Positions 5,943-42,718 of a stretch of DNA of 64,000 bases are shown one piece after another (within the stretch, counting starts at the first letter, position 1; each line of letters opens with the position of its first letter). The notes under the pieces were generated by a model. It was not told the DNA's origin. It made no database searches and saw only the letters and a program-made list of their open reading frames with translations. The position numbers were made by a program, and so were the translations under genes. Source of the DNA: Candidatus Eiseniibacteriota bacterium (GTDB lineage: Bacteria > Eisenbacteria > RBG-16-71-46); contig OY970178.1 of assembly GCA_963707915.1 (NCBI GenBank), positions 512,001 to 576,000 on the forward strand, written 5' to 3'.

Positions 5943-6766
5943 CCAGGCTCCGGCGGGCCGTCGCGCGGGCGGCGATGATGTTGGCGCTGGTCGCGGGATG
6001 CGCGCCGCGCCCGACGGGAGTCGCGCCGGTGACCGGCGGGGCGCGCGAGGAGCTCTACCTGTCGCAGCTGTCGCGACGCGAACAGCGCGCGGCCATGGTC
6101 GAGGGGGCGGCGACGGTCTGGGCACGGGCCGGTGCGGCGTGCGACAGCTGCCCGCCGCTCCGGCTGCCGGCCGTGCAGGCGGGGTTCGTGGTGGCGTGGC
6201 CGGAGGCCTTCCGGCTGCGCGTCGGATCGCTGTTCGGCGCGGCCCTCGATGTCGCCCTGGACGGCGACTCGATCACGGCCTACGTGCCCTCGCAGCGGCT
6301 CGGCCTGGCGCTCGACGCGGGGAGCGACTCGCTCGGCGTCGAACGGCCGGGGCGCTTCGCGACGCGCCTGGTGAGCGCCGGGTGGCGGCCGCCGCGGCCG
6401 GCCTGGGCGGACGGGACGTGGGAGGGACGGTGGCTGGTGCTGCGCTGGGCGGAGGCCGCGGATTCGATCGCGCTGGCGGTCGACGCGGCCGGCGTCCCGG
6501 CGTGGGCGCGCCAGTGGCGGGACGCCGGCCGCGGGGTGGTCATCGAATACCAGCGCTGGGAGTCGGTGGACGGCGTGGACTGGCCGGCCCTGGTCGAAGT
6601 GCACGCGCCGGCCGGCCCGCTCGACCTCACGCTGCGGCTCGACCGCGTGACGTTCCCCGCCGTCCCCGACCGCTCCCGCTTCGGGGTGCGCATCCCCGGG
6701 GACGCCGAGCGCGTCGGGCCCGAGCGGCTGCGGGGGATGCTGGAGCGCGCGGGAGGCCGGCGATGA
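5939..6766 (+). CDS. Lipoprotein, possible LolB/DUF4292-like fold
   Basis: Lipobox LVAGC and a beta-rich body (WPEAFRLRV..LFG, VVIEYQRW..VDG..WPALVEV). The family assignment is tentative. Confidence 0.5.
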   Translation: MTRLRRAVARAAMMLALVAGCAPRPTGVAPVTGGAREELYLSQLSRREQRAAMVEGAATVWARAGAACDSCPPLRLPAVQAGFVVAWPEAFRLRVGSLFGAALDVALDGDSITAYVPSQRLGLALDAGSDSLGVERPGRFATRLVSAGWRPPRPAWADGTWEGRWLVLRWAEAADSIALAVDAAGVPAWARQWRDAGRGVVIEYQRWESVDGVDWPALVEVHAPAGPLDLTLRLDRVTFPAVPDRSRFGVRIPGDAERVGPERLRGMLERAGGRR

Positions 6767-7386
6767 GGCGGGCCCTGTGGATCCTGTCGTGCGCGCTGCT
6801 GGGGCTGCCGGCCGCGGGCCCGGTCGCCGCCGCCGTGGGCGACGCACCGGCTTCGAGCCGCGCCCTGCTGGCCAGGCTGCGCTCGGCGGGGCGCGCCGAG
6901 GCCACGCTGCGGCTCGGCCGGCTCGACCCGCTGAGCGGGCGCACCACCGTCGTGCGCGGGCGGCTCGTCCTGGAGCTGCCGCGGTTCGCGCGCCTGGAGC
7001 TCGAGGACGGGCAGCGCCTCACGCTGCGCGCGGACGGCGGCGACTGGCTCCAGCCGGCGACGCGCCAGCTGGTGCGCGCGGGGAACCGCTCGGCAGCGGG
7101 GGCGCTGGTGTGGTGGGGCGTGCTGCTGGACCCGCAGTCGACCGGGATCCTGGAACGCAAGGTCGGTGCGCGCCAGTACCTGCTCCGCTGGCCGGCGGCG
7201 GGTGAGCCCGTGATGCAGCGGGTCGAGCTGGGGACGGACGGACTGCCGCGCCGCCTGACGGTCGAGGCGGGCCCGGGAGAGCGCGTGGAGTACGTCCTCA
7301 CCCGCTGGCGCTTCGTGCGGTCGCGCGGCCCCGCCGAGTTCACGCTCGCGGCCCCGGCGGGCTTCGAGGTCGTGGAGCTGCCGTGA
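6763..7386 (+). CDS. LolA-like outer-membrane lipoprotein carrier family protein
   Basis: ATG at 6763 overlaps the upstream stop. Signal peptide, GRLVLELPRFARLEL, DGGDWLQP..RQLV, and a C-terminal FTLAAPAGFEVVEL like LolA 'F.F.PP.G..V'. Confidence 0.65.
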   Translation: MRRALWILSCALLGLPAAGPVAAAVGDAPASSRALLARLRSAGRAEATLRLGRLDPLSGRTTVVRGRLVLELPRFARLELEDGQRLTLRADGGDWLQPATRQLVRAGNRSAAGALVWWGVLLDPQSTGILERKVGARQYLLRWPAAGEPVMQRVELGTDGLPRRLTVEAGPGERVEYVLTRWRFVRSRGPAEFTLAAPAGFEVVELP

Positions 7387-7446
7387 CGCTCCTCGACCGC
7401 GGCCGATCCCGTGGGCGCGTGGATGCGCCGAAGTCGCGCCTCCCGC

Positions 7447-7475
7447 TTGACACCCTCCGGATGCTCGCGGAGACT
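7447..7475 (+). promoter_or_regulatory. Putative sigma70 promoter for the rsmD-coaD operon
   Basis: TTGACA-N17-GAGACT. Confidence 0.4.
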
Positions 7476-7486
7476 CGCAGCCGCTC

Positions 7487-8065
7487 GTGCGCGTGATCGC
7501 GGGGTTCCTCGGAGGGCGCAGGCTCAAGGCGCCGCGCGGCCGGGAGACGCGGCCGACCTCGGACCGCGTGCGCGAGTCGCTCTTCATGGCGCTCGAGCCC
7601 CTGGCCGGGCTGATGGTGGTCGACCTGTACGCCGGCTCGGGGGCGCTGGGGATCGAGGCCCTCTCGCGCGGCGCGGCCCGGGCGGAGTTCGTCGAACGCG
7701 AGGCGGCGGCGCGCCGGGTGCTCGAGGAGAACCTCGCGGCGCTCGGACTGGCCGGTTGCAGCCGGGTTTGGGCGCTCGACCTGCCGCGCGGGCTCGAGCG
7801 GTTGCGCGGGGAGCTGGCGCGGGCCGACCTCGTGCTGGCCGACCCGCCGTACGGCGGAGGGCCGGCCCGGGAGGTCCTGGAGACGCTGGGGCGGCCGGGG
7901 ACGCTGAAGCCGGGGGCGCGGGTGGTGGTCGAGCATCACGCGAAGGACGAGGTGCCGGAATCGAGCGGGTGTCTCGCGCGGATACGCACGCGGCGGTACG
8001 GCGAGACGACGCTGAGCACGTACCAGGCGGCGGAGCCATCCGCCGCCGAGGAGCGAGGGCGATGA
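7487..8065 (+). CDS. rsmD: 16S rRNA m2G966 methyltransferase RsmD
   Basis: MRVIAG..GRRL, TRPTSDRVRESLF, DLYAGSGALGIEALSRGA, DPPY. Confidence 0.95.
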   Translation: MRVIAGFLGGRRLKAPRGRETRPTSDRVRESLFMALEPLAGLMVVDLYAGSGALGIEALSRGAARAEFVEREAAARRVLEENLAALGLAGCSRVWALDLPRGLERLRGELARADLVLADPPYGGGPAREVLETLGRPGTLKPGARVVVEHHAKDEVPESSGCLARIRTRRYGETTLSTYQAAEPSAAEERGR

Positions 8066-8610
8066 CCACGAGCCGGACGGCGCTGTTCCCCGGGACGTTC
8101 GATCCGTTCACCAACGGGCACCTCGACCTGGTACAGCGGGCGGCGCACCTCTTCGACCGGGTGGTCGTGGCCGTGGCCGACAACCCGGCGAAGGGAGTGC
8201 TGTTCACGCTGGAAGAGCGCGTGGAGATGATCCGCGACGCCACGCGGGGGATGAAGAGCGTGGCCGTGGTGTCGTTCGGAGACCTGGTGGTGGACTGCGC
8301 GCGCCGGGTGCGCGCTCAGGTGATGATCCGGGGCCTGCGGGCGGTCAGCGACTTCGAATTCGAGTTCCAGATGGCGCTGATGAACCGCCGGCTCTCGCCG
8401 CGGCTCGAGGTCGTCTTCCTGATGCCGAGCCAGCAGTACACCTACCTGAACTCGACGCTGGTGAAGGAAGTCGCGCGCCTGGGCGGCGACGTGCGGGACC
8501 TGGTGCCGCGGCTGGTGGCGGCGCGGCTGGACGAGCGCCTGCGGCCGGCGGCGCGCCGCGGGGCGCGGACCCGCGGCGCGGCACGGACGACGGGGCGACC
8601 ACCGGCTTGA
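8062..8610 (+). CDS. coaD: Phosphopantetheine adenylyltransferase
   Basis: FPGTFDPFTNGHLD, RGLRAVSDFEFE, STLVKEVA. ATG at 8062. Confidence 0.96.
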   Translation: MTTSRTALFPGTFDPFTNGHLDLVQRAAHLFDRVVVAVADNPAKGVLFTLEERVEMIRDATRGMKSVAVVSFGDLVVDCARRVRAQVMIRGLRAVSDFEFEFQMALMNRRLSPRLEVVFLMPSQQYTYLNSTLVKEVARLGGDVRDLVPRLVAARLDERLRPAARRGARTRGAARTTGRPPA

Positions 8611-9602
8611 GTGCGATCCTGGAGCGTCTGCGGCGTGCGGCGCGGTCGCGTCCCCAGCGGCTGCTGCTGGCGGAGGCGGAGGACGAGCGCGTGGTGCGCG
8701 CGGCGGAGACGATCGTCCGCGAGCGCATCGCCCGGGTGGCCGTGGTGGGCTCCCGCGCCGTGCTGCGGGAGACCGCGCGCAAGGCGGGCGTGGGGCTCGC
8801 CGGCGTCGAGCTGATCGAGTCGGACGGGGCGGACGAGATCGCGCGCACCGCCGCCGAGTTGCGCGCGGCGCGCGGTGACCGCCTGGGCGGTGCCGACCTC
8901 GAGCGCTACGCCCGCGACCCCCTCTTCCAGGCGGCGTGCCGCGTCCGGGTGGGGCTGGCGGACGGATTCGTGTGCGGGGCGGTAAGGACCACCGCGGACG
9001 TGCTGCGGGCGTCGCTGTACCTGGTGGGCCTGGCGCCGGACACCCGCACGCTGTCCTCGTACTTCCTGATGGTGCTGCCCGCCGCCGCCGGGCGCGAGCG
9101 CGTGCTGGTCTTCGCGGACTGCGCGGTCGTGCCCGACCCGACCGCGGAGCAACTCGCGGACATCGGCATCATGGCGGCGACGCACTTCCGGCGCCTGACG
9201 GGGGAGATCCCGCACACCGCCTTCCTGTCGTTCTCGACGCGCGGGTCGGCCGACCATCCGCACGTGGCGAAGGTGCGGCAGGCCGTGTCGCTGGCGCAGG
9301 AACGGCGGCCGGACCTGCACCTGGACGGCGAGTTGCAGCTCGACGCGGCCATCGACCCGCAGGTGGGCCGCCGGAAGGCGCCGGGCAGCGTGGTCGCGGG
9401 AGCCGCGAACGTGCTGGTCTTCCCGGACCTGGACGCCGGCAACATCGGTTACAAGCTGGTCCAGCGGCTGGCCGGAGCGCGGGCCTGTGGCCCGATCCTG
9501 ATGGGACTCGCCCGGCAGTGCAACGACCTCTCGCGGGGGTGCAGCGCAGCGGACGTCGTCGAGACCGGCACGATCGCCTGCGCGCTTTCCGCGACGAACT
9601 GA
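8607..9602 (+). CDS. pta: Phosphate acetyltransferase (short form)
   Basis: FADCA, LSFSTRGS, DGELQLDAA, FPDLDAGNIGYK, NDLSRG. Confidence 0.92.
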   Translation: MSAILERLRRAARSRPQRLLLAEAEDERVVRAAETIVRERIARVAVVGSRAVLRETARKAGVGLAGVELIESDGADEIARTAAELRAARGDRLGGADLERYARDPLFQAACRVRVGLADGFVCGAVRTTADVLRASLYLVGLAPDTRTLSSYFLMVLPAAAGRERVLVFADCAVVPDPTAEQLADIGIMAATHFRRLTGEIPHTAFLSFSTRGSADHPHVAKVRQAVSLAQERRPDLHLDGELQLDAAIDPQVGRRKAPGSVVAGAANVLVFPDLDAGNIGYKLVQRLAGARACGPILMGLARQCNDLSRGCSAADVVETGTIACALSATN

Positions 9603-9617
9603 GGGAGGACGGACTCC

Positions 9618-10016
9618 ATGCCCACCTACGACTACCGGTGCCGCAAGTGCGGACACTCGTTCGAGCTCTTCCACGGCATCAAGGACGATGCGCCGAAGCG
9701 GTGCCCGAAGTGCAGGGGCAGGGCGCAGCGCGTCCCGGCCGGAGGGGCCGGCGTACTGTTCAAGGGGACCGGCTTCTACGTCACCGACTACCGGAGCAAG
9801 GCGTACAAGGAAAGCGCCCGGCAGGAGAAGAGCGCGAGCGGCGGGAGCGGTGGCAGCGGCTCGTCGGGCGGTGGCAGCGGCTCGACCGGCGGTGGCAGCG
9901 GCTCGGCCGGCGGTGGCAGCGGCTCGTCGGGCGGTGGCAGCGGCTCGGCTGGCGGTGGCAGCGGCTCGTCGCGCGGTGGCGGCTCGACCGGCGGCAAGAC
10001 GCCCGCGGGCGCCTGA
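9618..10016 (+). CDS. FmdB-family zinc-ribbon regulatory protein with a Gly/Ser repeat tail
   Basis: MPTYDYRCRKCGHSFE...CPKC...FKGTGFYVTDY. Confidence 0.9.
   Translation: MPTYDYRCRKCGHSFELFHGIKDDAPKRCPKCRGRAQRVPAGGAGVLFKGTGFYVTDYRSKAYKESARQEKSASGGSGGSGSSGGGSGSTGGGSGSAGGGSGSSGGGSGSAGGGSGSSRGGGSTGGKTPAGA
9846..9989 (+). repeat. 21-bp coding tandem repeat (GGCGGTGGCAGCGGCTCGnnn), six copies plus one shortened copy, encoding GGGSGSx
   Basis: Read directly from the sequence. Variation is almost confined to the last codon of each unit. Confidence 0.9.
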
Positions 10017-10028
10017 GAGCCTGCGCCC

Positions 10029-11906
10029 GTGGCCTTCGGTCTGGTGCAGGCCGTCCTGGAGTCGCACGGGCTCGAGCGGACGGTGGTGGAGCGCACCCGC
10101 GACGCGGGGATCCGGATCGTCGACCAGGTGGTGCTCGGAAGTGAGCAGGTCCCGCTGGTCGTCGCCCTGCTGAGGCGCGCGGGCGTCGAGTCCGCACGCG
10201 TGAGTCCCGCCCTCGCGGATCCCGGCAGCGGCAACGACGGAGACGAGGACGAGCCGGCGACCGACTGGCGGCGTGCGGCGCTCGAGCTCGGGATGCTGAT
10301 GCCGCGGCCCGGGCACGGCGACCTGCGCGTGCTCCACCGCGAGCGGCTGGCGGCGCCGGGGCGCCTGGCGCTGGTCTCGGGACGGATCGCCGCCTGCGGT
10401 GCGCTGGGGATGCTGGCGCTCGAGGCGGACGCGCTCGTGGCGGCGGCCGTCCTGGCCGGCGGGCCGTTCGTCCCGGAGGAGCCGCGGGTGCTCGGCGTGG
10501 AACTGGCCGGTGCGCTGTCGCCGGTGGCGGGCGGCGTGGACCTCGCGCTGGCGCTGCTCTCCCGGCTGCGCGAGACCGGCGCGGCGGCGGACGTGCTCGA
10601 GCTCGGAGGCGGCGGAGTCGCGACGCTGGCGATGACCGAGCGGATGAGCGCTGCCTGGGTCCTCGGGGAGGCGGGGTTGCTGGCGCTGTTCCCGTCGGAC
10701 GAGGTGACGCGCGCGGAGCTGGCCGCGCTGGGGCGCGAGCAGGACTGGCGCCGCATCGAGGCGACCCGCGCGGGCGACGGGATCGTGTGGAGCCTGGAAC
10801 TGGGGGAAGTCGCCCCGCTCCTCGCTCCGCTCGAGGAACTCGGGCGCCCGCAGCCGGCGAAGGCGTTCGCCGGGACGCCGATCGAGCGCGTGCTGGTGGG
10901 GCCGGGCGCCACGCTGGCCGATCTCGCGCGGTTCGCGGCCCGGCTCGAAGGCCGCCGGGTCCACGAGCGGGTCGAGTGCACGGTGGTGGCGGGGAGCCGG
11001 GCGGTGCTGGATCGCCTGGTGTCGTCGGGCGTGACGCAACGGCTGGCGGTCGCGGGGGCGCGGGTGACGGAGGGACGGGTGGCGGCCCACACCGCGGGCG
11101 CGGGTGCAGGGCTGTGCGTCGGCGTGCCGCACGACGCCGTCGCGGCGGGCCGTGCACGATGGCTCGTGGGAGGCGTAGAATGCTGCGCGGCGGCGGCGCT
11201 GGCGGGAGCCGTCACGGTCCCGGCGGGCGGCGACGTGCCGGCGGTGGTCGAGGTCGGGGGCGGGAGCCCGGCGGATCCGTGGAGGCCCGGGGCCGCCGCT
11301 GGGCCGGCCGCGGAGCGCGCGCGGCCCGGGGCGCCGGGGATGGCGCAGGGCCGGTACCGCGGAGAAGTGCTCGCGATCCTGGGCGACGAGGTGGAGTGCG
11401 CGCGGTTGCTCGCTCCCGGCGCCCGGCTCGAGGGCCTGCGCGGCCGGCTGCGCGCGTTCGCGGGGCAGTTGCTGGCCGGGATCGATCCCGGCTTTGCAGC
11501 CCGCGCGCACGAGCGGGGCGGAGGCTTCGTGGTGGCGGGGACGGGGTTCGCTCGCGGGGAGCCGCGCGCGGCCGTCGCCGTCTGCCTGGCCGAGTGGTCC
11601 GTACGGGCCGTGCTGGCGCGTTCGTACGCGCCCGGAGCGGCGCAGGCGCTGGTGAACGCGGGGGTGATGCCGTTGAGGTGGACGCAGGTGGGGACGACGG
11701 GACCGTTCGATCGGGGTGACGAGCTGGAGTTGCCGGGTTCGCCGGAGGCGCTGCTGCCGGCGCAGCCGCTGACGGTCCGCAACCTGACGCGCGGCACTCA
11801 CGTGACGCTGCTGCACGACCTGTCGGCGCAGGCGATCGCGGTGCTGCGGGCCGGCGGGCTGCTCCCGTTCGTGATCGGACACGCGCCGGGCGCGGGGAGG
11901 CCGTGA
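10029..11906 (+). CDS. Aconitase-family protein (single chain, about 625 aa) with degenerate catalytic motifs; probable pseudo-enzyme
   Basis: Scaffold motifs RPGHG, GGGGVATLAMTER, FPSDEVTR..L...GREQDW, GSRAVL...L.VAGARV and the swivel-domain end (LRAGGLL) are present. The DSH, GSCTN, CxxC and GSSRE motifs are all replaced. Confidence 0.8.
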   Translation: MAFGLVQAVLESHGLERTVVERTRDAGIRIVDQVVLGSEQVPLVVALLRRAGVESARVSPALADPGSGNDGDEDEPATDWRRAALELGMLMPRPGHGDLRVLHRERLAAPGRLALVSGRIAACGALGMLALEADALVAAAVLAGGPFVPEEPRVLGVELAGALSPVAGGVDLALALLSRLRETGAAADVLELGGGGVATLAMTERMSAAWVLGEAGLLALFPSDEVTRAELAALGREQDWRRIEATRAGDGIVWSLELGEVAPLLAPLEELGRPQPAKAFAGTPIERVLVGPGATLADLARFAARLEGRRVHERVECTVVAGSRAVLDRLVSSGVTQRLAVAGARVTEGRVAAHTAGAGAGLCVGVPHDAVAAGRARWLVGGVECCAAAALAGAVTVPAGGDVPAVVEVGGGSPADPWRPGAAAGPAAERARPGAPGMAQGRYRGEVLAILGDEVECARLLAPGARLEGLRGRLRAFAGQLLAGIDPGFAARAHERGGGFVVAGTGFARGEPRAAVAVCLAEWSVRAVLARSYAPGAAQALVNAGVMPLRWTQVGTTGPFDRGDELELPGSPEALLPAQPLTVRNLTRGTHVTLLHDLSAQAIAVLRAGGLLPFVIGHAPGAGRP

Positions 11907-11907
11907 C

Positions 11908-12945
11908 ATGCTGATCGACCAGGCCCGCATCCACGTGCTCTCGGGCGCGGGAGGCGAGGGCTGCGTGAGCTTCCGCAGGGAGAAGTTCGTGCCCAAGGGT
12001 GGGCCGGACGGGGGCGATGGCGGGCGCGGCGGCAGCGTGTTCCTCGAGGTGGACGTGCACGTGCGCACGCTGCTTGACTGCCGCGAACAGCCTCGTTACC
12101 GTGCCGATCGCGGTGGTCACGGCTCGGGCAACCGGCGCTCGGGCAAGGATGGACGGGACCTCGTGGTGCGCGTCCCGCGCGGCACGGTGGTGCGGGACGC
12201 CTCGACCGGCGAGGTGCTCGCGGACCTGGTCCACCCGGGGGAGCGGTTCGCCGCCGGGCGCGGCGGACGAGGCGGACGCGGCAACGCGCACTTCGCGACG
12301 CCGACGCACCAGGCGCCGCGACACGCCGAGCCCGGCGGTCCAGGCGAGGAGCGCTGGTTCGAACTGGAGCTCAAGCTCATCGCCGACGTGGGCTTCGTGG
12401 GCCTGCCCAACGCGGGCAAGTCCACCCTGCTCTCGAGGGTCACGAAGGCGCGGCCCCGCATCGCGCCGTATCCGTTCACGACGCTGGAGCCGCACCTGGG
12501 GATCGTGGCGCTCGACGACGAGCGCCAGTTCGTCGCGGCCGACCTGCCGGGGTTGATCGCGGGAGCGCACGAGGGCAAGGGGCTCGGTCACCAGTTCCTG
12601 CGCCACATCGAGCGCACGAGGGTGCTGCTGTTCATGGTGGAGTCCGGCGCCGAGGATCCGGCGCACGACCTCGAGGTGCTCGAGCGGGAGGTGTCGTTGC
12701 ACAGCCCGGCGCTGAAGGACAAGCCGCGACGCGTGGTCATCACCAAGGCCGACCTGGTCCCGCCGGAGGATCGCGCGGCCGCCTGCGCGCGCCTCGGGAT
12801 CCCGGACGCCCGGCTCATCAGTGCGCAGAGCGGCGAAGGGTTGGCCCCGCTGCTGGAGGACGTCTGGGGACTGATCACGACGAGCCTGGCGGCGGAGGCG
12901 GCCGCGCCCGCGGACGAGGAAGAGGAAGAGGTCGAGGATGAGTGA
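11908..12945 (+). CDS. obgE: GTPase ObgE/CgtA
   Basis: FRREKFVPKGGPDGGDGG, ADVGFVGLPNAGKSTLL, YPFTT, DLPG, FLRHIER. Confidence 0.97.
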   Translation: MLIDQARIHVLSGAGGEGCVSFRREKFVPKGGPDGGDGGRGGSVFLEVDVHVRTLLDCREQPRYRADRGGHGSGNRRSGKDGRDLVVRVPRGTVVRDASTGEVLADLVHPGERFAAGRGGRGGRGNAHFATPTHQAPRHAEPGGPGEERWFELELKLIADVGFVGLPNAGKSTLLSRVTKARPRIAPYPFTTLEPHLGIVALDDERQFVAADLPGLIAGAHEGKGLGHQFLRHIERTRVLLFMVESGAEDPAHDLEVLEREVSLHSPALKDKPRRVVITKADLVPPEDRAAACARLGIPDARLISAQSGEGLAPLLEDVWGLITTSLAAEAAAPADEEEEEVEDE

Positions 12946-13669
12946 CGACCGGCACCCCCCGGCGAGGAGCTACGACGCGCTGAACACGCGCGGCCTCGCG
13001 GCCAAGCGGGAGTACGTGCGCGGGCTCGAGAAGCGCCGCGACAGCGAGGCCCTGTCGCTGCTGGTCGAGTGCCTGTGCGACGAGTCGTGGTACCTGCGGC
13101 AGCTCGCCGAGCAGGCCTTCCTGAACCTGGGCAGCGAGGGGGCCCCACTGCTCCTGCCGTTGCTCGAGCAGGGGCTGTGGTTCACGCGCGTGAGCTCCGC
13201 CGGGATCCTCGGCAAGCTGGGCCACGCTCCGGCGGTGCCGGGGCTGCTCCGCCTGACCGAGGACGAGAACCGCACCGTGGCGGAGGCCGCGCGCGAGGCG
13301 CTGATCGCGGTCGGCCGCTCGAGCGGCGCGGTGCGGATCGCCCACGTGCTGCACCGCCTGGCGCCCGATTCGCGGCGCCGCCGGCTGGAGGACCTCGCTG
13401 CGCGGGACGCCGAGCTGGCGGAGCGCATCCAGCGGCTGATGACGAACGACGAGCTCATGGCGGTCGAGGACACCGAGCTGCTCACCGACGATCATCCGGT
13501 GGTGCGGGCGAGCGAGGACGGTTTCGAATGGGAAGTGCTCACCAGCCCGCCCGCGCCGAAGACGCCCGCCGAGCCCGGGCCCCCGCCGGGGCCGCAGGGA
13601 ACGCCGCCCGCGCCGTCCGGGACGGAGTCCCCCCGCCGCAGGGAGGATGACGGACCGTCCACCGCTTGA
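12938..13669 (+). CDS. HEAT-repeat protein
   Basis: LVECLCDESWYLRQLAEQAF, WFTRVSSAGILGKLG, LLRLTEDENRTVAEAAREAL. Confidence 0.75.
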   Translation: MSDDRHPPARSYDALNTRGLAAKREYVRGLEKRRDSEALSLLVECLCDESWYLRQLAEQAFLNLGSEGAPLLLPLLEQGLWFTRVSSAGILGKLGHAPAVPGLLRLTEDENRTVAEAAREALIAVGRSSGAVRIAHVLHRLAPDSRRRRLEDLAARDAELAERIQRLMTNDELMAVEDTELLTDDHPVVRASEDGFEWEVLTSPPAPKTPAEPGPPPGPQGTPPAPSGTESPRRREDDGPSTA

Positions 13670-14624
13670 AGCGCGGGTGCTCTTCTCCCGCACGCCGGCC
13701 GCGACCGACCCGGGATCCGCCTGGCGGGCCGCGGGCAGCGCTGAACGCGGGACGGCGGCCGGCGTGGCGCGGACCCTCGAGCGCCTGGGCGTCTGCGCCC
13801 CGATGGCGGGGGAGCCGGGCTATCCGGCGGCCCTGCTCGAACTCGCCGACGCCCCGCGCGTGGTGTTCGTCCGTGGGGTGCTGCCCGAACGCAGCCGGGC
13901 GGTCGCCGTGGTCGGTTCCCGCGCCGCCACGCCGTACGGGCTGGCCCAGGCCGGGGCCCTGGGCGCGGACCTCGCCCGGCTGGGCTACACCGTGGTGAGC
14001 GGCCTGGCGCGCGGCATCGATGCCGCGGCGCATCGCGGGGCGATCGAGGCTGGCGGCGCGAGCGTGGCGGTGCTCCCCGGCGGGCTCGACGCGGTCACTC
14101 CGCGGCACCACGCCGCGCTGGCCGAGGAACTGTGCGCTCGCGGCGGGCTGCTCAGCGAGCGGGCCAGCGGGCCGCCGCCGTTCCGCGCGACGTTCCTCGA
14201 GCGCAACCGGCTCATCGCGGCGCTCGCGGCGGCGACGGTGGTGGTCGAGGCGGCGGCGCGCAGCGGCGCGCTCGCCACGGCGGCCCGCGCGCGCCAGCTC
14301 GGCCGGCCGGTGCTCGCGGTTCCGGGCGATGTCGACCGCGAGACGAGCCGCGGCACGCACGCGCTGATCCGCGCCGGGGCGCTGCTGTGCGAGGGCGCCG
14401 GCGACGTGCGGAACGCCATCGGGTGCGGTGCGGGCCGCGGCGGAGAGGCGACGCCGCAGTCGCGGCTGGGCGCCGCCCTCGGGGTGGAGCCGCGCGGCGT
14501 GGACGAGATCGCCGGGGCCGCGGGTCTCGCGGTGGACGAGGCGCTCGCGCTGCTGCTCCAGTTCGAGTGGGCGGGCGCGGCCGTGGCGGTCCCGGGGCAG
14601 CGCTGGCGGAGGGCCGGCTCGTGA
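13647..14624 (+). CDS. dprA: DNA-processing protein DprA
   Basis: YPAALLELADAP, VAVVGSR, VVSGLARGIDAAAHRGA, RNRLIAAL, VVEAAARSG, and a C-terminal winged helix. Confidence 0.92.
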   Translation: MTDRPPLEARVLFSRTPAATDPGSAWRAAGSAERGTAAGVARTLERLGVCAPMAGEPGYPAALLELADAPRVVFVRGVLPERSRAVAVVGSRAATPYGLAQAGALGADLARLGYTVVSGLARGIDAAAHRGAIEAGGASVAVLPGGLDAVTPRHHAALAEELCARGGLLSERASGPPPFRATFLERNRLIAALAAATVVVEAAARSGALATAARARQLGRPVLAVPGDVDRETSRGTHALIRAGALLCEGAGDVRNAIGCGAGRGGEATPQSRLGAALGVEPRGVDEIAGAAGLAVDEALALLLQFEWAGAAVAVPGQRWRRAGS

Positions 14625-15535
14625 AGGCGGGGGACCGGGCGGTCGGGCTGCTGGCACGCGGGATCCTGGGCGGCCTGCGCGCGATGTCGTGGGAACGTTC
14701 GCGGGCGGCGGGCGAACGCCTGGGCGATGCCGTGCGCGCGCTGGGGCTGCGGCGGCGCGTGGCGCGGGAGAACCTCGCGCACGCCTTCCCGCAGTGGAGC
14801 GCCGCCGAGCTCGAGCGCGTGCTGCGGGAGCACTACCGCGAGCTGGGACGCGTGGTCGCCGAGTACGGACACCTCGACCGGCTGGCGCGTGCGCCGCTGG
14901 GGGAGGTCTTCGTCGAGCGGAGCGGGATGGAGGCGCTCGATGCGCTGCGGGGCCGCGGCGCGATCCTGATGAGCGGACACTACTCGAACTTCGAGCTGAT
15001 GGGCGCGATGCTGGCGCGGCTGAACCCGGTGGACTTCCTGGTGAAGCCGCTCTCGAACGCGGGAGTCGAGCGGCTGATCGACGGACGCCGTGCCGCGGCG
15101 GGGGTGGGCTGCATCAGCACGAGCGAGGGCACACGGGGCGTCTACCAGGCGCTGGCGGCGGGCCGCTGGGTCGCCATCCTGGCCGACCAGGACGCGGGAC
15201 GACGCGGCCTGTTCGTCCCGTTCTTCGGGCGGCCGGCGAGCACGCCCGCGGGTCCGGCGCGCATCTCGATCAAGACCGGGGCGCCGATCGTGGCGGGGTT
15301 CGCGGTGAGGCGGCCGGACGGGCGCTTCGACCTGCGGATCGAGCCGCCCTTCGAGCTGGAGGAACCGGCGGCCCCGGATGCGGTCCTGCGTCTCACCGCG
15401 CTGCACGTGGGCTTGCTCGAGGCGCGGGTCCGCGAGCGCCCGGAGCTGTGGTTCTGGCTCCACCGGCGGTGGAAGAGCGTCCCGCCCGCGGGCGGGGCGG
15501 GGGACGGGGCGACGAGCGTGGAGAGACCGGCGTGA
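14621..15535 (+). CDS. Lipid A biosynthesis (LpxL/HtrB-family) acyltransferase
   Basis: GTG at 14621. GHYSNFE (HxxxxE), ADQD, FFGRPAST, PELWFWLHRRWK. Confidence 0.88.
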   Translation: MKAGDRAVGLLARGILGGLRAMSWERSRAAGERLGDAVRALGLRRRVARENLAHAFPQWSAAELERVLREHYRELGRVVAEYGHLDRLARAPLGEVFVERSGMEALDALRGRGAILMSGHYSNFELMGAMLARLNPVDFLVKPLSNAGVERLIDGRRAAAGVGCISTSEGTRGVYQALAAGRWVAILADQDAGRRGLFVPFFGRPASTPAGPARISIKTGAPIVAGFAVRRPDGRFDLRIEPPFELEEPAAPDAVLRLTALHVGLLEARVRERPELWFWLHRRWKSVPPAGGAGDGATSVERPA

Positions 15536-15960
15536 GCGGCGACCGGGTGGCGCCCGGCTTCCGTTTCGTGGAGCGCGTCCGCTACGCGGACACCGACCAG
15601 ATGGGGATGGCCTACCACGGGAACTACGTCCGCTGGTTCGAGGTGGGCCGCACGGAGATGCTCCGCGCGCAGGGGATGAGCTACCGGGAAGTGGAGGAGG
15701 CGGGGGTCCGGATGCCGGTGCTGGAAGTCCACTGCCGCTACCTCAAGCCGGCGCGCTACGACGACGAGCTGGCGATCGAGACGATGCTCACCGAGCTGGG
15801 ACGGGCCTCGCTGCGCTTCGAGTACCGCGTGGTGCGCGTGGCGGACGGCGAGCTGCTGGCCTGCGGCGCCACGCGGCACTGCTTCGTCGATCCCGCGGGC
15901 AGGCCGGTGCGGCCGCCGGCCTTCTTCGCGGAGCTGCTGGAGCGGGTCGCGCGCGGCTGA
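15532..15960 (+). CDS. Acyl-CoA thioesterase, YbgC/FadM hotdog family
   Basis: VRYADTDQMGMAYHGNYVRWFEVGR, YLKPARYDD. Confidence 0.92.
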   Translation: MSGDRVAPGFRFVERVRYADTDQMGMAYHGNYVRWFEVGRTEMLRAQGMSYREVEEAGVRMPVLEVHCRYLKPARYDDELAIETMLTELGRASLRFEYRVVRVADGELLACGATRHCFVDPAGRPVRPPAFFAELLERVARG

Positions 15961-18563: not shown

Positions 18564-18639
18564 GCGACCCTAGCTCAGTTGGTAGAGCACGTGACTGAAA
18601 ATCACGGTGTCCCCAGTTCGATTCTGGGGGGTCGCACCA
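18564..18639 (+). tRNA. tRNA-Phe (GAA)
   Basis: Cloverleaf with acceptor GCGACCC/GGGTCGC, anticodon arm CGTGA-CTGAAAA-TCACG, T-loop TTCGATT, and encoded CCA. Confidence 0.97.
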
Positions 18640-18694
18640 TAGCAGTGCCGGTGGAGGTCGGGGTCGTGCGCCCGCGTTCGCCGGAGGAGAGAGA

Positions 18695-18770
18695 GCCGGT
18701 GTAGCTCAGTTGGTAGAGCATGCGATTCGTAATCGCAAGGTCAACGGTTCGACCCCGTTCACCGGCTCCA
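18695..18770 (+). tRNA. tRNA-Thr (CGT)
   Basis: Acceptor GCCGGTG/CACCGGC, anticodon arm TGCGA-TTCGTAA-TCGCA, encoded CCA. Confidence 0.97.
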
Positions 18771-23917: not shown

Positions 23918-24015
23918 GGGAACGAATGGGATCTGGTGGTCCCCGGGGACTTCAAATCCCGCGGTCGGGCGTTAAGAGCGTCCGAGGTGGGTTCGATTCC
24001 CACGCGTTCCCGCCA
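23918..24015 (+). tRNA. selC: tRNA-Sec (TCA)
   Basis: 98 nt. 6-bp D-stem with 4-nt loop (GGGATC-TGGT-GGTCCC), anticodon loop CTTCAAA, long variable arm, G73 discriminator and CCA. Adjacent to selD. Confidence 0.95.
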
Positions 24016-38991: not shown

Positions 38992-39065
38992 GGGCCCATA
39001 GCTCAGTGGTCCAGAGCGGCCGGCTCATAACCGGCAAGACCCTGGTTCGAATCCAGGTGGGCCCA
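38992..39065 (+). tRNA. tRNA with CAT anticodon, most likely Ile2 (lysidine); elongator Met not excluded
   Basis: Acceptor GGGCCCA/TGGGCCC and anticodon arm GCCGG-CTCATAA-CCGGC. The paired G1-C72 excludes fMet. CCA is not encoded. Confidence 0.9.
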
Positions 39066-39107
39066 GAATCGAACGCCGCAGGTGGCCCGCGCGGGCCGCG
39101 TCGAGTG

Positions 39108-39183
39108 GGGCGGGTAGCTCAGCTGGCAGAGCACCTGGATCACAACCAGGGGGTCACAGGTTCAAGTCCTGTTCCGCCCACCA
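39108..39183 (+). tRNA. tRNA-Val (CAC)
   Basis: Acceptor GGGCGGG/TCCGCCC, anticodon arm CCTGG-ATCACAA-CCAGG, encoded CCA. Confidence 0.93.

Positions 39184-42069: not shown

Positions 42070-42086
<17 letters not shown>
41649..42086 (+). CDS. rnhA: Ribonuclease HI family protein
   Basis: CDGGSRGNPGPA, TNNVAEY, DSELVVRQM.GEYRVK, RREANTHADRL.N.A. Confidence 0.92.
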
Positions 42087-42486
<400 letters not shown>

Positions 42487-42718
42487 GTGTTTCCTTCCGG
42501 AGAGCCGCCGCGCGCACGGGACCGCCCAGGCGGATCCTGCCGCGCCGGCGGTGCCGGACGGCCGGGACGCGGCATCACGCGCGCGACCGACGGCGCCGGG
42601 CCGATACAGGTCCGAGGCCGGCGGTGGCGCGTCCTTGACCCTTTGGAAGCGAGGCTGACAGCGTGACCGAAGCGTCGTCCTCCGTCGCGCGCCGCGTGCT
42701 CCCGTTCGTGGGCCTTCC

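Follow-up and report, generated by a model that had tools for sequence, protein, structure and literature searches.

We analyzed a 64,000-nucleotide stretch of the genome of a Candidatus Eiseniibacteriota bacterium (contig OY970178.1; hereafter the window), and within it a gene at 10029–11906 on the forward strand that encodes a 625-residue homologue of aconitase, here called pAcn. An earlier reading made from the nucleotide sequence alone had described this gene as an intact aconitase homologue that has lost all its iron–sulfur ligands and catalytic motifs, and had suggested that the scaffold is kept for a non-catalytic role such as RNA binding, metabolite sensing or service as a partner subunit. 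The gene is the fifth in a same-strand series (rsmD, coaD, pta, fmdB, pAcn, obg, a HEAT-repeat gene, dprA and a lipid-A acyltransferase gene) whose members overlap or are separated by a few bases. The features of the pAcn gene, all on the + strand, are as follows.

10029..11906, +: pAcn, a 625-residue, presumably catalytically dead, fused (LeuC+LeuD-like, PRK07229/TIGR01342-type) aconitase homologue, from its open reading frame (ORF), PF00330, NF005558, an AlphaFold2 (AF2) model and Foldseek
10317..10337, +: GDLRVLH (residues 97–103) in place of GICHQVH, from alignment columns
10374..10388, +: VSGRI (residues 116–120) in place of GSDSH, from alignment
10896..10913, +: VGPGAT (residues 290–295) in place of IGSCTN; a two-residue deletion takes out the first cluster cysteine
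11115..11117, +: C363, aligned with the last cysteine of CGPC, the sole cysteine left at a ligand position, from alignment
11229..11357, +: linker (residues 401–443), nearly neutral in its evolution; predicted local distance difference test (pLDDT) score below 50 at 408–412 and 423–440
11358..11882, +: domain 4, the LeuD-like swivel domain (residues 444–618), the best-conserved part
11394..11408, +: ECARL (residues 456–460) in place of TTDHI, from alignment
11556..11576, +: GEPRAAV (residues 510–516) in place of GSSREHA, from alignment
11715..11795, +: predicted GDELE ... RNLTRG hairpin (residues 563–589), the top-conserved motif of the dead family

The reading frame opens with a GTG and runs for 625 codons with zero stops. 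Because the window has a G+C content of about 74%, long open frames arise here by chance; an antisense ORF of 1208 residues (8442–12068, minus strand) runs across pta, fmdB, pAcn and the start of obg, and an open frame alone therefore has little meaning at 77% G+C. The G+C content of pAcn at codon positions 1, 2 and 3 is 0.84, 0.57 and 0.92, the same coding pattern as in the neighboring genes, and the third-position value is at its maximum in the annotated frame. Model PF00330 matched the protein with 77.8 bits (E 1.1e-21; gathering cut-off 28.7). PF00694, the second model suggested for checking the homology, reached 12.7 bits and so fell below its threshold of 22.8. The models NF005558 (E 6.8e-61, 206.6 bits) and TIGR01342 (E 6.4e-59, 199.8 bits) matched at scores below the curated cut-offs for the enzyme, which are 612 and 719.15 bits, and TIGR02087 scored 33.6 bits against a cut-off of 108.95. 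The sequences of solved IRP2, IRP1 and mitochondrial aconitase structures matched pAcn with E values from 1.7e-13 to 5e-9. Models of AcnA covered residues 123–239 only (50–63 bits), and at 625 residues pAcn does not have the architecture of about 890 residues typical of AcnA and the IRPs. The ORF is a genuine gene, and its homology to aconitases is far above chance. The description of an uninterrupted 625-residue aconitase homologue agrees with the frame, with the PF00330 and NF005558 matches and with the predicted four-domain fold.

The fate of the active site was read from an alignment (A1) of 43 of the 80 database matches of pAcn. The alignment includes 12 intact fused aconitases, which carry GICHQVH, GSDSH, GSCTNS, CGPCIG, FNRNF, TTDHI and GSSREHA. 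Every motif that supplies catalytic or substrate residues (GICHQVH, GSDSH, NRNF, TTDH and GSSREHA) is substituted or deleted in pAcn, NRNF being removed by a deletion of 17 residues. The earlier claims that GICHQVH, GSDSH, IGSCTN, TTDHI and GSSREHA are substituted and that NRNF is absent agree with this comparison. The claim that ESACGPC has become EGRVAAH does not: CGPC aligns instead with A-G-L-C (residues 360–363), after an insertion, in the least certain stretch of the alignment. The broader statement that all iron–sulfur ligands are replaced holds for two of the three; the position of the third is occupied by C363, a cysteine present in 15 of 44 orthologues. The window copy has seven cysteines. 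C386 is the only cysteine column that a majority of the orthologues retain (32/44), and it is present in the intact enzymes too. A cluster site rebuilt from alternative cysteines (GLCVG, VECC), the finding that was to overturn the claim of ligand loss, was rejected, as no alternative conserved cysteine set occurs among the 44 orthologues. Judged from its sequence, pAcn would be able neither to hold the cluster nor to dehydrate citrate.

The loss extends to the relatives of the gene. We ran a family profile against 201 genomes of the phylum Candidatus Eisenbacteria/Eiseniibacteriota, and long, strong matches were nearly confined to one family, here called f1, in which 81 of 86 genomes matched at E<=1e-20 and pAcn is kept over at least 28 genera. 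Real absence of the gene from some f1 genomes was considered and rejected: genome G195 carries the C-terminus at a contig end directly upstream of obg, and in G151, G066 and G087 obg was likewise not found. We examined 47 loci of f1 relatives in two sets (28 and 19 loci), which together with the window give 48 copies. GSDSH, GSC(T/S)N and CGxC occur in none of the 48, which answers the question whether orthologues keep the cysteines that this copy has lost, and fragments of motifs (GRCE, TTEQ, GSSRV) survive in a few copies. The arginine equivalent to R644, the substrate-binding arginine of GSSREHA, is variable across the f1 copies, and this variation argues against sensing of a tricarboxylate (citrate or isocitrate) at the old site.

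A tree of 65 rows (LG+G4, unrooted; four truncated or frameshifted rows left out) places a single branch, with a Shimodaira–Hasegawa-like approximate likelihood ratio (SH-aLRT) support of 100, between the dead and the intact sequences. The fused intact aconitases are the nearest relatives of pAcn on this tree, and end branches measure 0.4–1.2 within the dead family versus 0.14–0.5 among the intact enzymes. We also took the 150 best-matching cluster representatives (clustered at 50% identity), of which 107 are full length, and scored seven catalytic motifs in these 107, using regular expressions that may overlook variant spellings. Zero or one motif was found in 74 representatives, two to four in 13 and at least five in 20, making at least 74 of the 107 dead-type. 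The metagenome representatives with only two to four motifs (P0124, P0131, P0139, P0152, P0160, P0176 and others) may be intermediate or independent degenerations; one such pattern is retention of the cysteines without the acid/base motifs. Two non-syntenic matches lie outside f1. One, L036 in family f11, is a fully intact enzyme, and the other, L039 in family f8, has serine at the first ligand cysteine (GSSAN) and keeps the remaining motifs. L039 belongs with P0077 and P0079 to a separate subfamily of fused homologues that has GSSANPG, with the same serine, and GVSHP for GICHQ, and that retains CxGC, GSDSH, STDE and GSSREHA.

We compared rates of nonsynonymous and synonymous substitution (dN/dS) by the pairwise Nei-Gojobori method (NG86). 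For pAcn the five closest pairs gave 0.249, 0.323, 0.273, 0.229 and 0.258; obg and pta, each comparable in four of the five, gave 0.10–0.16 and 0.17–0.26, respectively. Divided by region, the medians over 13 pairs were 0.21 for domain 4 (444–618), 0.27 for domain 2 (96–250), 0.32 for domain 1, 0.40 for domain 3 and 0.56 for the linker (401–443). The linker serves as an internal neutral control: the three closest pairs give it values of 1.05, 1.28 and 0.78, and domain 4 lies at 0.11–0.21 in close pairs. In nucleotide alignments that were left uncorrected, 10 of 11 pairs have indel lengths divisible by three and the remaining one shows 2+10, which total 12; differences at third positions are 2–4 times those at first or second positions. 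These data show that pAcn is selectively maintained and not decaying, with purifying selection strongest on domains 4 and 2. The alternative that this is a decaying copy with a dN/dS near 1 among intact relatives does not fit the values of 0.23–0.32 in close pairs or the death of all 48 f1 copies. Loss of catalytic residues together with purifying selection is the operational definition of a pseudoenzyme, and it describes pAcn; on the evidence of the sequences, the family is a pseudoenzyme of the aconitase superfamily throughout f1.

The AF2 model of pAcn, built from a 28-row family alignment, has a pLDDT of 83.6 and a predicted template modeling (pTM) score of 0.86, with low confidence at residues 18–28, 69–76 and 408–440 and in the last seven residues. 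Its top Foldseek match is mitochondrial aconitase (1b0m; E 2e-36, query-normalized TM-score (TMq) 0.71). Further matches are IRP1 and the large subunits of archaeal LeuC/HacA, and for the C-terminal domain the LeuD small subunits (target-normalized TM-score (TMt) 0.73–0.76). IRP1 bound to its iron-responsive element (IRE) has a TMq of 0.60–0.62, below that of the closed mitochondrial enzyme. By this model pAcn keeps the four-domain aconitase fold; the structural comparison with apo-IRP1 that had been suggested returned an aconitase fold, with closed mitochondrial aconitase closer than IRE-bound IRP1.

Residue conservation was determined in 46 dead-type sequences, leaving out three truncated and one frameshifted loci as well as L036 and L039. 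Columns kept at >=85% in this set are mostly conserved in the intact enzymes too and represent the structural core. Columns conserved in the dead family only are R444, R466, E565, E567, R584, L586 and R607 in domain 4, and D239, R112 and E137 beyond it; E567, R584 and L586 are kept in 46/46 sequences. Of the 74 dead-type cluster representatives, 49 have a motif like RNLTRG, against none of the 20 intact ones. The mean frequency of the top residue, dead versus intact, is 0.56 vs 0.69 in domain 4 and 0.45 vs 0.73 in domain 3, and conservation relative to the intact enzymes reaches its maximum in domain 4. No dead-family-specific conserved His, Asp, Ser or Cys was found at the former active-site positions among the 48 f1 copies and the 46-sequence set.

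The genes around pAcn in the window are listed here, followed by the equivalent slot in other families of the phylum.

7487..8065, +: rsmD, context gene
8062..8610, +: coaD, context gene
8607..9602, +: pta, phosphate acetyltransferase (PF01515, E 3.1e-101)
9618..10016, +: fmdB-type zinc-ribbon gene with a Gly/Ser-repeat tail (PF09723, E 1.6e-15)
11908..12945, +: obg GTPase gene (PF01018, E 8e-62)
12938..13669, +: HEAT-repeat protein gene, overlapping the end of obg (PF13646, E 7.1e-10)
L058 and L064, family f2: pta, about 1.3 kb (with an aminotransferase gene in L058), then fmdB, obg and HEAT
L062, family f11: fmdB, obg
L063, family f7: fmdB, icd-like gene, obg
L059–L061, family f9: fmdB, glcD-like gene, intact leuC-like gene (417 residues) and leuD-like gene (166 residues), obg

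The fmdB stop lies 12 nt from the pAcn start and the pAcn stop 1 nt from the obg ATG, spacings that had been stated before and agree with the coordinates. A simple consensus scan of the + strand from 6500 to 15543 found no promoter-like or terminator-like sites. In the two sets of f1 loci, fmdB lies upstream of pAcn in 27/28 and 18/19, obg lies downstream in 26/28 and 19/19, and both flank it in 25/28 and 18/19, so that the proposed fmdB-acn-obg synteny was found. Four loci do not show both flanks: in three the locus stops before one of them is reached, and L050 has no fmdB match. The HEAT gene was detected in 168 of the 201 genomes of the phylum sample. The fmdB gene of the window has in its tail (9847–9980) a 21-nt tandem repeat of 6.4 copies with 91% matches, which encodes GGSGS-type repeats; among FmdB relatives the first approximately 70 residues align, and the tails vary in length and sequence.

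The sequence-only reading had placed pAcn in a module that joins acetyl-phosphate/CoA metabolism to the ribosome GTPase. The comparison of loci leaves this module unsupported: fmdB, obg and the HEAT gene are linked without pAcn in other families, pta is absent from the locus in f7, f9 and f11, and the slot between fmdB and obg may hold an icd-like gene (in f7, and in 6 f1 loci beside pAcn) or a leuC/leuD-like pair (in f9). The f9 arrangement (L059, 1431–4855; also L060 and L061) consists of a gene for a glcD-like FAD oxidase and the intact pair, which is a second aconitase-superfamily occupant of the fmdB-obg slot in one phylum. Descent of pAcn from this pair was rejected. The pAcn-family profile gives 437 bits with the fused intact L036 and about 147 bits with the f9 large subunit, indicating descent of pAcn from a fused aconitase rather than from split subunits.

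The icd-like gene bears on the history of the slot. It lies between pAcn and obg in the 6 f1 loci, from six genera (L017, L026, L027, L038, L045 and L053), and is there 64% identical to the f7 gene of the same slot; icd is missing from 41 of the 47 loci of f1 relatives, and the window lacks it here as well. The NCBIfam models that match the icd-like gene best are those of isocitrate dehydrogenases, with scores under all equivalog cut-offs, and it can be assigned only to the isocitrate/homoisocitrate dehydrogenase family. The f1 ancestor may have carried an aconitase-icd pair in the bracketed position of an operon rsmD-coaD-pta-fmdB-[ ]-obg-HEAT-dprA; the aconitase would have become inactive at the base of f1, and most lineages would later have dropped icd from the locus. 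We infer this order, an ancestral pair followed by aconitase death and then icd loss, as the simplest reading.

A potential concern is whether the death of pAcn merely reflects the presence of a second enzyme. The same genome has an intact 750-residue aconitase of mitochondrial type with all motifs (G000:C1:76044-79500; L001, L066), directly upstream of a gene for NADP-isocitrate dehydrogenase, which settles positively the question of a working aconitase elsewhere. Within f1 it occurs in only 3 of 87 genomes (that of the window and those of its two nearest relatives), and redundancy with it was rejected as the cause of pAcn death because all f1 copies of pAcn are dead. Its next-best matches (58–65% identity) are in other families; given this and its presence in only those three f1 genomes, it may be a recent acquisition. 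Other strong PF00330 genes are present in 5/5 near-complete f1 genomes, and in 4/5 there is one with at least 500 bits and an open frame of at least 930 residues (AcnA-sized) where it is not split between contigs. The genome's two isocitrate dehydrogenase (IDH) family genes sit away from pAcn, one beside the 750-residue aconitase and one near leuCD. An archaeal-type leuC-like gene (L002; G000:C1, approximately 2158.2–2159.6 kb) lies in at least three frames with good LeuC sequence in each, and the adjacent leuD-like gene is intact; the frame changes must be genuine frameshifts or else reflect indel errors in the single-contig assembly.

Taken together, we think it probable that pAcn is a pseudoenzyme derived from a fused aconitase once paired with icd and kept as a folded, non-catalytic binder. 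On this view the [4Fe-4S] site would have disappeared at the base of f1 along with all motifs that contact the substrate, and the folded four-domain protein would have been kept since; it would be produced together with Obg and would work by binding another macromolecule, either a protein or RNA. The putative interface is a conserved surface of domain 4 that includes GDELE...RNLTRG and an Arg-rich segment following the place where TTDH used to be. The partner could equally well be RNA or a protein, with the icd-like dehydrogenase, Obg, FmdB and the HEAT protein as candidates. A complex prediction for FmdB residues 1–75, the HEAT protein and pAcn returned no support (score 0.01, mark 0.32) and is evidence neither way. 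The earlier reading of pAcn as a maintained but catalytically dead homologue is supported by the dead copies, the dN/dS values and the in-frame indels, without the acetyl-phosphate module attached to it.

Several observations weigh against the binder. The domain-4 surface is putative; the Arg and Glu residues of that domain could form a structural salt-bridge network and not a binding site. In eight more distant pairs dN/dS rises to 0.39–0.60, at a dS of 0.6–1.0, which is near saturation. In f1 loci pAcn has 35–57% identity where obg holds 65–80%. Its composition (1 Lys, 60 Arg and 18% Ala in 625 residues) has drifted with GC pressure, and a basic charge of the whole protein, sought as a sign of nucleic-acid binding, was not found; the isoelectric point (pI) is approximately 5.9, dead and intact proteins being alike in this. 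Finally, pAcn is split over two or three frames in four f1 genomes. The split copies are L056 (G063), L067 (G070), L068 (G046) and L069 (G042); that of G046 may be an assembly or sequencing error, since pta is split there as well.

The best-placed of the alternatives, although we consider it unlikely, makes pAcn a dedicated RNA-binding regulator, a permanently apo aconitase that would bind mRNA or rRNA in the manner of apo-IRP1, apo-AcnA/AcnB and CitB, though with no iron-sulfur switch. RNA binding by IRP1 and CitB needs domain-4 arginines just after the TTDH motif, and the domain-4 arginines R444, R466, R584 and R607 are conserved in pAcn. The predicted inability to hold the cluster points the same way, as do the operon neighbors rsmD and obg, whose products work on rRNA or on the ribosome. 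IRE-like RNA is a known ligand of apo-aconitases from bacteria (PMC7527780). Against this stand the architecture, for the proven RNA-binding aconitases are all of the approximately 890-residue AcnA/IRP type or AcnB and the AcnA models fit only a short segment of pAcn; the former active-site cleft, the RNA contact region of IRP1, which is the least conserved and fastest-evolving part of pAcn; the pI of approximately 5.9; and the model, which is nearer to closed mitochondrial aconitase than to IRE-bound IRP1. A wider version seems to us doubtful as well: the aconitase fold, free of its cluster for good, would here have become a dedicated regulator, and its conserved swivel domain would bind RNA or the Obg/ribosome-assembly machinery.

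It is doubtful, too, that pAcn is a relic partner that survives from an aconitase-IDH assembly and now serves the icd-like dehydrogenase, or the working aconitase, as a scaffold or regulatory subunit without catalysis of its own. The position of the icd-like gene directly downstream of pAcn in the six f1 genera, and in the same slot in f7, would suit such a role, and a deposited model of an aconitase-IDH assembly (9a4j) is among the Foldseek matches of pAcn. The rarity of icd at the f1 loci and its absence from the window speak against it, as does the location of the genome's own IDH-family genes elsewhere.

That pAcn is a functionless relic, its frame open because stops are rare at 77% GC and because a disruption would disturb the essential obg downstream, was already disfavored and is improbable. 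Long chance frames such as the 1208-residue antisense ORF (8442..12068), the fast divergence and drifted composition, and the split copies in four genomes are what it would lead one to expect. The low dN/dS of the close pairs, lowest in domain 4 with the linker of the same gene near 1, the indels in multiples of three, retention in at least 28 f1 genera and a fold confidently predicted by the AF2 model from family covariation all argue against it. That pAcn is still an enzyme, with a new cluster-free or differently ligated active site for another reaction, is very improbable, for although C363 keeps a ligand position, the window copy has seven cysteines and partial-motif intermediates occur among the metagenome representatives, the one widely kept cysteine (C386) is shared with intact enzymes, no new His, Asp, Ser or Cys is conserved at the former active site and the R644-equivalent arginine varies.

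Returning to the pseudoenzyme reading, we compared pAcn with known systems. The fused 'putative aconitate hydratase' of PRK07229/TIGR01342 type (about 645 residues; P0049-P0071, L036) has the same length and the domain order 1-2-3-4, is the best family match and is the nearest on the tree; the 12 intact fused aconitases have 26–35% identity to pAcn over at least 77% of the query, and over at least 87% for 10 of the 12. Unlike these enzymes, pAcn lacks all seven motifs, scores one third of the curated cut-off and evolves several times faster. The archaeal-type LeuC/LeuD and HacA/HacB (PDB 4KP1, 4KP2, 2PKP, 3VBA), whose large and small subunits match the two halves of pAcn, are active two-subunit enzymes, whereas pAcn appears as a fused dead chain. 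IRP2 and apo-IRP1 (PDB 6VCD, 2B3X, 3SNP), regulators of the aconitase family that are non-catalytic or switchable, use the aconitase fold for binding instead of catalysis, as proposed for pAcn; they are its best PDB sequence matches (E 1.7e-13) and are also among the Foldseek matches. The IRPs, AcnA-type proteins of about 890–960 residues, keep their ligand cysteines and recognize defined IRE hairpins; pAcn belongs to the short fused type and lacks the ligands, and RNA binding by it is only hypothetical.

Aconitases are the textbook case of an enzyme that turns regulator on cluster loss. In the f1 lineage the apo state would have been made permanent, with selection kept through divergence to about 35% identity, so that pAcn may represent a natural separation of a non-catalytic function from catalysis; the partner of the conserved domain 4 would reveal what the aconitase scaffold does without iron. 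If the regulator reading were true, a former enzyme of the tricarboxylic acid (TCA) cycle would have been recruited to control ribosome biogenesis or translation across a whole Eisenbacteria family, as a bacterial, switch-less counterpart of IRP2 with an independent origin from the short fused aconitase type. Database names for the pAcn family are 'aconitate hydratase' or none, and under that label metabolic reconstructions from genomes will miscount pAcn as a TCA enzyme. A literature search at the level of listings found no description of a cluster-less bacterial aconitase homologue or of Eisenbacteria aconitases.

Other features of the window are RNA genes. A tRNA-Sec gene lies at 23918–24011 (71.3 bits), a bacterial class A RNase P RNA at 42071–42489 (254.9 bits), and four tRNA genes at 18564–18767 and 38992–39180.

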